NCBI GenBank assembly: GCA_030867685.1
Contig: JAQOWU010000008.1
Coordinates: 3,906,001-3,970,000, forward strand
Reading direction: 5' to 3'
From: Wickerhamiella versatilis
Taxonomy: Eukaryota
DNA: 64,000 bases
The translations under genes were made by a program, and so were the position numbers. Below, one piece after another: positions 28,259 to 32,268 of this stretch (within the stretch, counting starts at the first letter, position 1; each line of letters begins with the position of its first letter). Under the pieces are notes generated by a model, which saw nothing but the letters and a program-made list of their open reading frames with translations, did not search any database and was not told the DNA's origin.

Positions 28259-28972
28259 TCCTGAAAATTGAGGTGTTATCGCCAAGCTTCCTATCAAATA
28301 AAGATGCGAGATGACTAACAACCCGGATTCTGCCTATAGATGCCGAAGTGGGATTAAGTGATGTATAGACTCCCGCCTAACTAGAGAAGAGCGTCGAAAA
28401 AAAAATTACCTGGAAAAATATTTGGGCATATAGATCCTATATTGTGCAAACATATCCTGCCAGCCGTGCGAGATACTGTTATCGAATTTAATGAAACTAG
28501 GGTGCGGGTTAATTTACCCTCCCTATTCACGTGCGGAGACTCCGACCTGGGATTGAGCAGACAACATAGAGGTGTTAGGGGTCAGAAGATATTCAAAATA
28601 GGTTTCTAATGAATTTTTAAGGACACTTCCTGCACCATTGTGACGCAGGCCAGGGACTAAGAAGTCGCCAAAATATAACAGGGTTAGGATACAAAACAAG
28701 GTTTTGCCAAACGTATGGGCACCCCGAAGGAAGCCAGCTCCAACTCTTGTTTAAAATTAATTTCACTTGAGCTACTCCAATAGTGAGGAAAGCACAGACC
28801 GGTCCTACCTAACCCTCACAACCATTTTTGGAAAATAAGCTCAAGCGATCTGATGATCTTCCGTTGGTGTGGGCCAAGGGCACTGGCGAGTACATTCATA
28901 AGGTTAGCCAACGAGAACCTCCAATCGGGGCGATTAGGGTGAATGGTGCAATGCGCCTAGCACATTTCTGAT

Positions 28973-29145
28973 GCCAAACCTCTAGGTATCGAACCTGGTG
29001 TTTCCAGGACTAGGATTGGCGTATGAACAGGGCGACCTCTGGATATCAAGAGGTGGCATTTACAGGGCAAACTCTGGTATCGAGAGCTGGCATTTACAGG
29101 GCAAACTCTGGTATCAAGAGCTGGCGATTCCAGGGCAAGGATCGT
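28973..29145. repeat. Degenerate ~34-bp tandem repeat array upstream of the HO-like gene
   Basis: Units at 29028-29062, 29063-29096 and 29097-29130 (consensus CAGGGCAAACTCTGGTATCAAGAGCTGGCATTTA), a partial unit from 29131, and a more diverged copy at about 28973-29020. Confidence 0.85.
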
Positions 29146-29367
29146 AGGAATCGACAAAATAAGTGGTACTTGAGATTGGCATCAAGCGTAACAATAATTT
29201 TACAAATAACAAAAAATTATCAAAATTGATCGATTCCACTTAACTATGGTCCCTTATGAGCAGCCATTGTCCAGTGCACTCGTGGCGTATCTAAAACCTA
29301 ATCTCTGGCGGTACCAACATTTATGTATATATAGATATGATGGGACAATTGCGGCCTCCTTATACAC

Positions 29368-32268
29368 ATGCGTCCAGGTCAATCCTCGATCGTAGATTTC
29401 TTTAACCGAAAGCGGCACGAAAGATCGCAGGGCTCGCAGATTGCAACGGAGAGCCAGGAACGGTCCGCCCCACACCCCCGCGTCAATGCTGAACCTGAAT
29501 CAATAACCCTGCATCGCGGGGAGGAAAATCAGCCAAATATTGAGCCTGACTCTGAGCCTGAATTTGAGCTTGGCTCCGACATCGACTTGGAGGGGCTTGA
29601 TTCAGACGACGATTTGCTTGAGGAGGATCCGGATTCTGAATCTGAATCCGAATCTGAGGCTGAAGCCGCTGTAAAGCGGACTGGAGACCTATTCGAGCAC
29701 AATATGGTTCATGATTATTTTGAGCCGGTCCATAAGTGTCCTGGCATTGAGGAGCACGAGCAAGTGCGTCTTGCATCCGGTGGAACTAAGATGGTCCGGG
29801 ATGTGGTGGCGGGAGATTACCTGCTGGACCGGATGGGGAGACCCAAGCGTGTCACGAAGGTCACGCGTGCTACAGGCGAAGGCTATGAAATCACGAGGAA
29901 AAGCACCGCGCAGACCCTCGACATCTATGCGCGTCAAAAGGTTATTGTGGGTGCCCAGCAGCTTCTTGAGGTCTCGGTAAACCAGACAAATTTGCAGTCG
30001 CAGCTGCTGGTCGATAAGGTGACCGAGGGGAAGGTGGGTGTACAATACCGCGAGCTGGTTGAGGAAACATTGGTGGAGAACGGCACCCACCGCAGGATCC
30101 TCAAAGCTCGAGAAACGTCCGCGGGAACATCCTATGCGAATCCGCCCAAACCACGCATCACTATGGCGACTAAGGAGGAGGCCGAGGACGATGCGAGGGC
30201 CAAAGCACAGGAGAAAGTACCCAGGAACAACGACGGGGTTCCAGAGCCTTACATTCGGTGGTACGCTGAGGCACGAGACATGGTCAACTACCAAACACCA
30301 CCCCCTTCGAATGAGGATTCTCGTGTTGCGGCAAATGTGGTCGCGCTCAATTTAGGAGTTAGGGTGCGTGACGGCATCGAAGTTCCAACGGGAGTGGTGG
30401 CACAATCGGTCGGGACGTGTCCTGAGCGCGAAGCATTTGAGAAAGCGGCCCGCCGCTTATCGCTGAGCCAGCTGGAGATTTTTTGGTACCTTGCTGGTGC
30501 ATGGGTCGGTGATGGATCCATGAAAGCACCTTTGATTCATGTGGATTCCGTTGACGGGGAGTCCATGAGGCGTTTTGCGGAAGATGCGGCGGCGCTGGGG
30601 CTCTATTGCGACGTCGAATATCGTTATCTCACAGATGAAGAGCTCATGGAGTGGGGCGTCCAAGACAAGAAAGGAGTGAATATTCACTTGGCCGGCCCCA
30701 CTGGGATCGCCGATGGAGAGTGGGAGAAAGTTGATCAGCTACTACAGTACACAACTAACAGGGCAAACCAGGCGAAAGAATGGAGGAACGAGTGGAATAA
30801 GCACCAAACGCGGCTCAAAGAGCAAGGAATGCCAGAATTGGAATATAAACCCAACCCGTTCTCACGTGGGGCAGCCAACGTCTACATATTCAACGGGTAC
30901 CACCAAGAAAAACGGGTTCTCACGGAGAACAACTGGTTATGGGTGTTGTTTTGCAAAGCCCATATAAGAGGAATTGGCCGTAAAGATGGGAGAAGAATCT
31001 GTACCAAGACTTGCCCAGAGTGGCTGGTCACGTCTCCTATCGAATGGCGTGAAGCCTTCCTAGCAGGACTCACAGAGAGTGATGGTAGTAAAAGTAAAGT
31101 GAAAAAAGTATACAGCATTTGCACAATCTATCCAGAACTCTGTGACCGTGTCGTGGCTGTCGCACGATCCCTGGGCATTAAAACAGGTGTTCTTCCTACC
31201 ATGTCAAAAGGACATCTCACGTTCGGTAAAGGGCGTCAGCTCGCATATACTGTACGGCTTTCTGGTGGCGAGTCACTTCGCAGAACCATGTCACGCGTAG
31301 CGCTAACCCGCAAAAAGCCCGATGCCAGGTGGCCGGTGGAGCCCGAGTGGAGCCTCACATCAGGCAATGCTAGGTTCGCTGCAACCCCTTTGCACAAAGA
31401 GTTTTCATTCGTACTTATTGAGATTGAAGGGCATGAATTTGCCTTGGACAATGGACTGGTGAGCCTGGAGGCCCACGCGAGCGGTCACTTCACAGAAACA
31501 GGGTGGCCTGCGTGTTCAGCGAAACCGATACCGGTAGAAGGGAAGGAGGGGTGCATCGCTTGCCACACTACAGATACACCAAAATGGCGTCCTAGCTGGG
31601 ATTTCCGTGAAGGCAGGCTCTGCAACGCGTGCGGCAAGAAATTTGCTAACGTGAATGTGCACTGCACGGTATGTAAGTTTATTCCAGGAACCCCCAAATG
31701 GAAATCGTTACAGTCCTTGGCCAAAAGGAATGACAGCGGGGACCTTGCCTATCCCTGCCCCAACTGCAGTAAGGGCAAAAGCGAGCAATTCACAATTGTG
31801 CGGAGCGACCAGAAAGAGGCCCATAAATGCCTTTCTTGCCATACCACTGAGGCTGAACGCTGGTTCCCCAGCTGGTCGCTCAAGGAGGGTATGGTATGTC
31901 CCGGATGCTATAAAAGGCTTGTGTCTTTTAAGGCGTATTGCGAGAAATGCAAGTTGGTGCCGCACCTTGAGGACCATACGAAGCTAGTGCCCGATAGCGA
32001 GGGATACAAGAAATTCCCATGTCGTAGATGCGCGACACCCATAGCGGTGCGCGTCGATGCATGCTGCTTGTGCGGTAACTGTAAACCCAAGAAAATGACG
32101 AGAAACCTGGCGTTCGACGGCAAAATATGCCAGAAGTGCAATTATCGTCTACAGAAAGTGGGTGGTGTCTACTGCAAAACCTGCAAATACGTGCCGCTAC
32201 CAAGTGAGTTCTCCCGCGATCCTCAGTTCAAAGCAACGTCAACATGCCAGAAATGTCGTGATATTTAG
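29368..32268 (+). CDS. HO/WHO-like intein-derived LAGLIDADG endonuclease with N-terminal PIP box and three Ash1-like zinc-finger modules
   Basis: Hint-N-like block from aa126 (GIEEHEQVRLASGGTKMVRDVVAGDYLLDRMGRPKRV); LAGLIDADG motifs YLAGAWVGDGS (~30487) and AFLAGLTESDGS (~31054); Hint-C-like HEFALDNGLVS; 12 CxxC pairs in three repeats. Confidence 0.85.
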   Translation: MRPGQSSIVDFFNRKRHERSQGSQIATESQERSAPHPRVNAEPESITLHRGEENQPNIEPDSEPEFELGSDIDLEGLDSDDDLLEEDPDSESESESEAEAAVKRTGDLFEHNMVHDYFEPVHKCPGIEEHEQVRLASGGTKMVRDVVAGDYLLDRMGRPKRVTKVTRATGEGYEITRKSTAQTLDIYARQKVIVGAQQLLEVSVNQTNLQSQLLVDKVTEGKVGVQYRELVEETLVENGTHRRILKARETSAGTSYANPPKPRITMATKEEAEDDARAKAQEKVPRNNDGVPEPYIRWYAEARDMVNYQTPPPSNEDSRVAANVVALNLGVRVRDGIEVPTGVVAQSVGTCPEREAFEKAARRLSLSQLEIFWYLAGAWVGDGSMKAPLIHVDSVDGESMRRFAEDAAALGLYCDVEYRYLTDEELMEWGVQDKKGVNIHLAGPTGIADGEWEKVDQLLQYTTNRANQAKEWRNEWNKHQTRLKEQGMPELEYKPNPFSRGAANVYIFNGYHQEKRVLTENNWLWVLFCKAHIRGIGRKDGRRICTKTCPEWLVTSPIEWREAFLAGLTESDGSKSKVKKVYSICTIYPELCDRVVAVARSLGIKTGVLPTMSKGHLTFGKGRQLAYTVRLSGGESLRRTMSRVALTRKKPDARWPVEPEWSLTSGNARFAATPLHKEFSFVLIEIEGHEFALDNGLVSLEAHASGHFTETGWPACSAKPIPVEGKEGCIACHTTDTPKWRPSWDFREGRLCNACGKKFANVNVHCTVCKFIPGTPKWKSLQSLAKRNDSGDLAYPCPNCSKGKSEQFTIVRSDQKEAHKCLSCHTTEAERWFPSWSLKEGMVCPGCYKRLVSFKAYCEKCKLVPHLEDHTKLVPDSEGYKKFPCRRCATPIAVRVDACCLCGNCKPKKMTRNLAFDGKICQKCNYRLQKVGGVYCKTCKYVPLPSEFSRDPQFKATSTCQKCRDI

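Follow-up and report, generated by a model that had tools for sequence, protein, structure and literature searches.

A putative PCNA-docking motif at the N-terminus of an HO-like endonuclease

Within a 64,000-nucleotide stretch of the Wickerhamiella versatilis genome (contig JAQOWU010000008.1, positions 3,906,001 to 3,970,000 of the forward strand; hereafter the window), we analyzed a 966-amino-acid (aa) open reading frame (ORF) whose product, P0001, joins a disordered N-terminal leader to an endonuclease of the HO/WHO type. A putative, lineage-restricted PCNA-docking motif of the PIP (PCNA-interacting protein) type was found at the tip of this ~110-aa leader, with a conserved basic module directly after it. 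We favour this explanation tentatively, at slightly short of an even chance. Judged from the sequences compared, the motif belongs to the P0001 species, with a weakened version in its closest relative, and is not a trait of the protein family. The features of the leader that carry the argument are as follows, with disorder expressed as the predicted local distance difference test score (pLDDT):

29380..29403, + strand: PIP-box-like octamer QSSIVDFF, residues 5-12, read from the sequence; no second strict match among the window ORFs or 152 related proteins
29404..29415, + strand: basic flank NRKR, +1 to +4; charge over +1..+5 of +0.6 per residue, K15 and R16 invariant in the 4-sequence alignment
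29404..29499, + strand: conserved module RKRxERSxGSQ(V/I)..E..RSxP, residues 13-44; better conserved than the octamer and the best conserved part of the leader
29539..29664, + strand: acidic, Ser-rich tract, residues 58-99; 21/42 Asp or Glu, pLDDT <50, poorly conserved

In the translation of the ORF (29368..32268), residues 5-16 read QSSIVDFF-NRKR (QSSIVDFFNRKR; encoded by 29380-29415 on the + strand). The octamer fits the strict pattern Q-x-x-[ILM]-x-x-F-F through Gln1, Ile4, Phe7 and Phe8, and has Val as its fifth residue and Asp as its sixth; the four residues that follow, N, R, K and R, place basic side chains at +3 (Lys15) and +4 (Arg16). The original prediction, made from the letters of the window, had described a PIP box with exactly these properties (Asp6, a basic +4 residue, and Val in place of Thr at position 5), and the ORF translation agrees with it on every point. 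The disordered acidic tract that it had placed at about residues 58-99 was likewise recovered, both in composition and in an AlphaFold2 model built on a 15-row alignment. In that model, residues 1-108 had pLDDT <50 with just a weak helix at residues 8-18, and a confident fold began at about residue 110. Net charge per residue was +0.25 over residues 1-4, on the N-terminal side of the octamer, and reached the value listed above on its C-terminal side.

According to excerpts of a paper on PIP motifs (PMC6881253), the canonical motif is defined as Qxx[LMIV]xx[aromatic][aromatic], such motifs sit in disordered regions that include the very N-terminus of proteins, and positive charge in the ±5 residues or so around them raises affinity, the effect spanning orders of magnitude, whereas negative flanks argue against binding. 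QSSIVDFF agrees with this description in its sequence, in its modelled disordered surroundings and in its neutral-to-positive flanks; its lack of conservation in homologs is treated below. A further point for PCNA docking is that the host protein acts on DNA and retains the two LAGLIDADG aspartates. If the octamer does dock, Ile8 and Phe11-Phe12 would insert into the hydrophobic PCNA pocket under the interdomain connecting loop, Gln5 would enter the Q pocket, and the RKR flank would add electrostatic affinity; the nuclease would thereby be tethered to DNA-loaded PCNA at sites of replication or repair synthesis.

We further estimated how often such a match would be expected from amino-acid composition. 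Of the ORFs in the window, 33 are 200 aa or longer (17,092 aa in total). Among these, QSSIVDFF was the sole strict match and also the sole match to the relaxed pattern Q..[ILMV]..[FY][FY], against expectations of 0.18 strict and 0.77 relaxed matches. When the count was confined to the N-terminal 20 residues across this set of 33, the expectation for a strict match fell to 0.0046. No strict motif occurred elsewhere in 152 relatives (76,752 aa), P0001 alone carrying one. These rarity statistics are suggestive and not decisive, because a reader who scans many motif classes over many windows will meet chance matches.

Conservation of the octamer and of the neighbouring module

Conservation of the motif in homologs had been put forward in the original prediction as a check on its own claim, and the outcome weakens that claim. 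Across 11 family N-termini (P0001-P0007, P0009, P0013, P0015 and P0016), the strict form was present in P0001 alone; one further sequence carried Leu at position 7, two were decayed and seven had no motif:

P0002, 60% identity: QATIAELF at the same residue 5; Gln1, Ile4 and Phe8 identical, Phe7 conservatively replaced by Leu, all four non-key positions different
P0003, 49% identity: QSLAFSNF (decayed)
P0004, 43% identity: 4-residue insertion, QSSNKVIENTYF (decayed)
P0005, P0006, P0007, P0009, P0013, P0015 and P0016, lower identity: nothing comparable

The beginning of the leader as a whole is well preserved at short distance. Residues 1-44 were identical to P0002 at 25/44 positions, level with the catalytic core (349/590), and the acidic linker at residues 45-110 reached 22/66 with 15 gaps. 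The RKRxERSxGSQ module is the N-terminal element that the family shares, with a role possibly separate from that of the octamer, such as nuclear import or phospho-regulation, for example at an SQ site of the checkpoint-kinase type. Its Ser-Gln pair is kept in P0001, P0002, P0003, P0005 and P0006, and not in P0004.

The carrier protein and its family

Like HO and WHO, P0001 joins an intein-type part to zinc fingers, and ~123 aa of leader stand in front of this fusion. The remaining features of the protein are:

29368..32268, + strand: 966-aa ORF of P0001; disordered leader, VDE/HO-like Hint and LAGLIDADG endonuclease, C-terminal Cys4 fingers (Pfam, PI-SceI alignment, Foldseek)
29737..29739, + strand: Cys124, start of Hint, a vestigial residue resembling intein position 1; invariant in the four closest sequences
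30487..30516, + strand: first LAGLIDADG motif YLAGAWVGDG, residues 374-383, with Asp382; invariant columns, pairs with PI-SceI LLGLWIGDG
31057..31086, + strand: second LAGLIDADG motif FLAGLTESDG, residues 564-573, with Asp572; invariant columns, pairs with PI-SceI FLAGLIDSDG
31552..32256, + strand: zinc-finger region of 12 CxxC pairs, Cys729 to Cys963, GATA/Ash1-like; Pfam GATA, CxxC count and invariant Cys columns

Pfam assigned Hom_end (4e-20) and GATA (7.6e-6) to P0001, together with LAGLIDADG_3 and a weak Hom_end_hint match; the GATA match, at residues 729-760, lies just below the curated cutoff (25.9 vs 26.8 bits). PI-SceI/VDE chains aligned at 4e-16 from residue 132 onwards, with both LAGLIDADG motifs paired, and the AlphaFold2 model (mean pLDDT 76) superposed on PI-SceI with a target-normalised template modelling (TM) score of 0.82 in Foldseek. 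The catalytic aspartates D382 and D572 are invariant across the four closest sequences. All 12 CxxC pairs fall within the C-terminal 240 residues, and residues 728-801 are matched by many ~500-aa proteins that have a C-terminal GATA finger. Another protein, P0011 (584 aa), consists almost wholly of repeated CxxC finger units without an intein part and matches residues 715-893 of P0001 (E 5e-30).

The residue at the junction between leader and Hint is Cys, Ser or Thr in 11/11 family members when inspected by eye, with Ser or Thr in the more distant ones; these three residues are the nucleophiles at position 1 of inteins. Asn208 of P0001 lines up with position 79 in crystal variants of PI-SceI that are deficient in splicing and likewise have Asn there; in the wild type, position 79 is the block-B His. 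The Hint domain ends in ..LVSLEA, with no C-terminal His-Asn. With the block-B His and the His-Asn pair missing, P0001 is, like HO and WHO, not expected to undergo protein splicing. We also considered active splicing or self-cleavage of the leader and regarded it as unlikely on the same missing residues. Cys124 keeps the junction nucleophile though the block-B His and His-Asn are gone, and may be a vestige or a sign of N-terminal self-cleavage.

An exhaustive HMMER search over 1.84 billion representatives returned 162 proteins at E <= 0.001, 19 at <= 1e-10 and 8 at <= 1e-30. P0002, P0004-P0007 and P0009 were the strong matches, along with fragments, and P0003 came from a separate first search; neither that search nor an alignment-based profile search yielded further close relatives beyond P0002-P0004. 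No protein shorter than P0001 matched residues 1-260 at E <= 0.01 in a word-based search, so that an intein-free relative of the leader was not found there, and a search of the ESM Atlas with residues 1-50 gave no usable match. A leader stands ahead of Hint in all of the 11 family members that have an N-terminus for comparison; this small family is further marked by a VDE-like Hint/LAGLIDADG core and by numerous CxxC fingers. The Hint profile was matched from residues 4-11 in the HO protein P0021 of Tetrapisispora (Henningerozyma) blattae, itself a match to P0001 at 5e-12, and in the Lachancea proteins P0034 and P0125. The statement in the original prediction that the leader is an addition relative to HO was thus supported, with ~123 aa before Hint here and a start at Hint in HO P0021 and the Lachancea WHO-like proteins.

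Placed in a 16-row tree built by a quick maximum-likelihood run, eight family members formed a clade of their own (Shimodaira-Hasegawa-like approximate likelihood ratio test (SH-aLRT) support 100), which lay outside a group of VDE, an intein in an Ariadne gene, HO and Lachancea WHO-like proteins (SH-aLRT 88), the root and several long branches being uncertain. Beyond HO and WHO, the P0001 family seems to represent one more lineage of intein-zinc finger endonucleases. Among the proteins returned by the HMMER search, P0133 (972 aa) is an RBR ubiquitin-ligase protein of the IBR/Ariadne type that is interrupted by a VDE-like intein (Hom_end_hint 1e-54, Hom_end 2e-32). We know of no Ariadne-type host gene for the VDE-like intein family.

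The gene is flanked by a haemolysin-III-type gene on one side and an amino-acid transporter gene on the other, in an ordinary gene-dense, intron-poor context. A Pfam scan of 30 neighbouring ORFs found no aldolase domain (FBA1), and the scan of the 30 other window ORFs found no PCNA domain. Fragments of window genes were absent from the two flanks, as was a second copy of the endonuclease gene from the window. We therefore rejected an organisation like that of the WHO element, since the flanks are without duplicated gene fragments and the window without a second copy.

Transcription and the start codon

Reading in frame, the first ATG past the TGA at 29338 is the one at 29368, and Met does not recur before residue 113. 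Four RNA-seq runs carrying the same species label and drawn from two studies (X6, X7, X9 and X10) were aligned to 28708-30507, and all 30 bins of this interval were covered in 4/4 runs. The read depths (both orientations summed) and the upstream features are:

Motif bin 29368-29427, depth: X6 ~18, X7 ~16, X9 ~14, X10 ~37
ORF body, depth as rough means: X6 ~22, X7 ~20, X9 ~5, X10 ~15
29327, + strand: read-start cluster, a candidate transcription start 41 nucleotides (nt) 5' of the ATG; 7 molecules begin there in X10
29337..29405, + strand: out-of-frame upstream ORF (uORF) of 22 codons with ATGs at 29337 and 29340, overlapping the main start, from reading of the sequence

Since reads with joints were absent from the first 1.1 kb of the ORF in the four runs, this part contains no intron. 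The original prediction had taken translation to begin at 29368 and had called for transcript mapping there; this ATG and the motif codons are indeed covered in the four runs, unspliced and at a depth like that of the ORF body. In X9 and X10, + read depth peaks in bins 29308-29427. A transcription start near 29327 is a candidate only, because reads extend further upstream and the libraries look unstranded. Taken with the protein conservation discussed below, it is very probable that at least a substantial share of the protein produced contains the motif. The uORF, the weak context of the main start and the strong context of Met113 may allow translational control or a leaderless isoform.

Further upstream, the intergenic bins 28708-29067 were transcribed at 2-3 times the ORF depth in X6 and X7. 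This transcription may stem from a separate RNA or from a long 5' untranslated region that belongs to the divergent haemolysin-III-type gene. Also upstream of the endonuclease gene, ~44 nt are repeated imperfectly in direct orientation (29027-29070 vs 29096-29138, 84% identical).

Weighing the alternative readings

PCNA docking has to be set against the possibility that the octamer is a chance look-alike, which does not bind PCNA in vivo and stands next to the true functional element, the basic/SQ module at residues 13-44, acting in import, in DNA contact or as a phospho-site. We take this main rival to be nearly as likely as docking. Several observations weigh against docking, and most of them fit a look-alike. 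The positions invariant in the four closest sequences (K15, R16, R19, S20, G22, E28 and S33) all lie outside the octamer, and the module persists without a PIP box as KRVERSAGSQV in P0005 and as RKR...GSQ in P0006. Because identity to P0002 is 3/8 in the octamer vs 20/32 in residues 13-44, the basic/SQ module shows signs of selection, whereas for the PIP motif such signs are not clear. The motif is absent or decayed in 9/10 relatives and is missing also from three near-identical cluster mates of P0006, so the case for a PIP box comes down to a strict motif in the sequence of one species. The 123-aa leader is, in addition, strongly acidic overall (33 D+E vs 11 K+R), and the main ATG has a weak context, with C at -3; as this weak context is combined with an overlapping out-of-frame uORF, some ribosomes may miss the motif. 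Excerpts of PMC6881253 further warn that searches with the canonical PIP motif yield false positives. On the other side, a look-alike would have to account for a strict match so close to an N-terminus, for which the composition-based expectation is very small, and for the agreement of position, modelled disorder and flank charge with known PIP boxes; the residues retained in P0002 are moreover exactly the key ones. The docking reading is thus weakened because the motif is missing from most homologs, a test that the original prediction had set itself, and yet it stands because short linear motifs turn over fast and P0002 keeps three of the four key positions.

Alternatively, the motif might lie outside the mature protein, either because translation starts mostly at Met113 after the uORF and re-initiation, or because the leader is removed at the Cys124 junction. 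The poor context of the main ATG and the overlapping uORF at 29337-29405 speak for such a start, as does the stronger context of Met113 (29704; A at -3, G at +4), and the Cys, Ser or Thr found at every Hint junction would suit removal of the leader. We nevertheless consider this unlikely. Non-coding sequence would not show the protein conservation seen between residues 1-44 of P0001 and P0002, nor the seven positions invariant across the four closest sequences. Met113 itself is not conserved, being replaced by A, V and V in the other three close sequences. If transcripts begin near 29327, the upstream ATGs lie just 10-13 nt from the cap, and ATGs very near the cap favour leaky scanning. Autoprocessing is improbable with Asn208 at the block-B His position and no C-terminal His-Asn. 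A bolder version of PCNA docking makes the motif a PIP degron, through which a ligase of the CRL4-Cdt2 type would ubiquitylate the nuclease bound to DNA-loaded PCNA, leading to its destruction either in S phase or following repair synthesis at the nuclease's own cut. HO is short-lived and its destruction is linked to the DNA damage response, which gives the idea a biological rationale. Even so, we give the degron little credence. The gene-dense, intron-poor context resembles budding yeast, and S. cerevisiae is not known to have a Cdt2 orthologue. In keeping with this, S-phase degradation of Cdt1 is stated, in excerpts of PMC5294997, to occur in all eukaryotes except budding yeast. A PIP degron is defined in excerpts of PMC8871960 as a PIP box whose fifth and sixth residues are Thr-Asp and which has a basic residue at +4 (and at +3 in human cells), and P0001 offers Asp6 and the basic +3/+4 residues, two of the three extra features. 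The third is lacking, since Val replaces the Thr of the Thr-Asp pair, and the degron-like label of the original prediction loses force accordingly; conservation is as weak as for a plain PIP box. Just as doubtful, in our view, is the most far-reaching proposal, that of a third intein-zinc finger lineage that has retained an extein-like leader, in which, for the P0001 species, a working PIP box or degron would lead to capture, and possibly destruction, of the nuclease on DNA-loaded PCNA. In that case S phase, or repair synthesis after its own double-strand break, would switch the nuclease off, and this PCNA-based switch would be a counterpart of the damage-triggered turnover of HO.

Implications and comparison with known systems

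Each cut made by a site-specific endonuclease risks the genome, and enzymes such as HO are for this reason confined to a narrow time window, which in HO is achieved through transcriptional control and rapid degradation. PCNA docking on an HO-like nuclease, if true, would be a different solution, in which a homing-type endonuclease is linked directly to the replication and repair clamp. In a literature search on HO endonuclease, PIP box and PCNA, no paper turned up that connects PCNA with homing endonucleases or those of the HO type, and the term PCNA was not found in PMC7282813. Should the octamer prove a look-alike, it would illustrate that a perfect match to a short linear motif in one species is insufficient without conservation or binding data. 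Independent of the motif, the carrier protein matters as an apparent further lineage of zinc-finger-fused intein-type endonucleases.

Among proteins with a PIP box, the PIP boxes of MSH6 and UNG2 are conserved across wide evolutionary distances, whereas the strict form seen in P0001 occurs in 1/11 family members. Human MSH6 (RQSTLYSFF) and UNG2 (MIGQKTLYSFF) come closest in layout, and as described in excerpts of PMC6881253 they share with P0001 the arrangement Q-x-x-aliphatic-x-x-F-F within the first ~12 residues, in a disordered region with basic residues after it. These two are proven binders, whereas the motif of P0001 is putative. The PIP degrons of Cdt1, p21 and Set8, as given in excerpts of PMC8871960, have in common with P0001 the PIP box, Asp6 and the basic +3/+4 residues, and differ in having Thr-Asp where P0001 has Val-Asp. 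LINE-1 ORF2p, a mobile-element-type nuclease with a PCNA-interacting motif (PMC10830420, from excerpts), provides a precedent for P0001. Its class is unrelated, however, combining an APE-type endonuclease with a reverse transcriptase, and its PIP motif is an internal packed helix and not a terminal disordered one. The Pogo transposase, a PCNA binder, was set aside as a further precedent, since PMC6881253 does not mention it and no paper with that term was among those listed by a literature search.

HO and WHO have been stated to be the sole LAGLIDADG/intein proteins fused to zinc fingers (PMC7282813), and excerpts of a preprint (bioRxiv 10.64898/2026.08.13.744650) make the same claim for LAGLIDADG endonucleases with a C-terminal zinc-finger domain; another literature search added no paper to these two. 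P0001 shares with both a VDE-like Hint with a double LAGLIDADG endonuclease, retained catalytic aspartates, the lack of a C-terminal His-Asn, CxxC fingers of the GATA/Ash1-like type and a stand-alone gene. The WHO element, in contrast, lies downstream of FBA1 and is accompanied by duplicated pieces of the FBA1 3' end; at the P0001 locus, neither was found among the 30 neighbouring ORFs and in the two flanks. HO and WHO also begin at Hint, whereas P0001 carries a disordered leader of 123 aa before Cys124; it has 12 CxxC pairs where WHO has 3-5 (PMC7282813), and in the 16-row tree its family branches apart from VDE, HO and the Lachancea WHO-like proteins.

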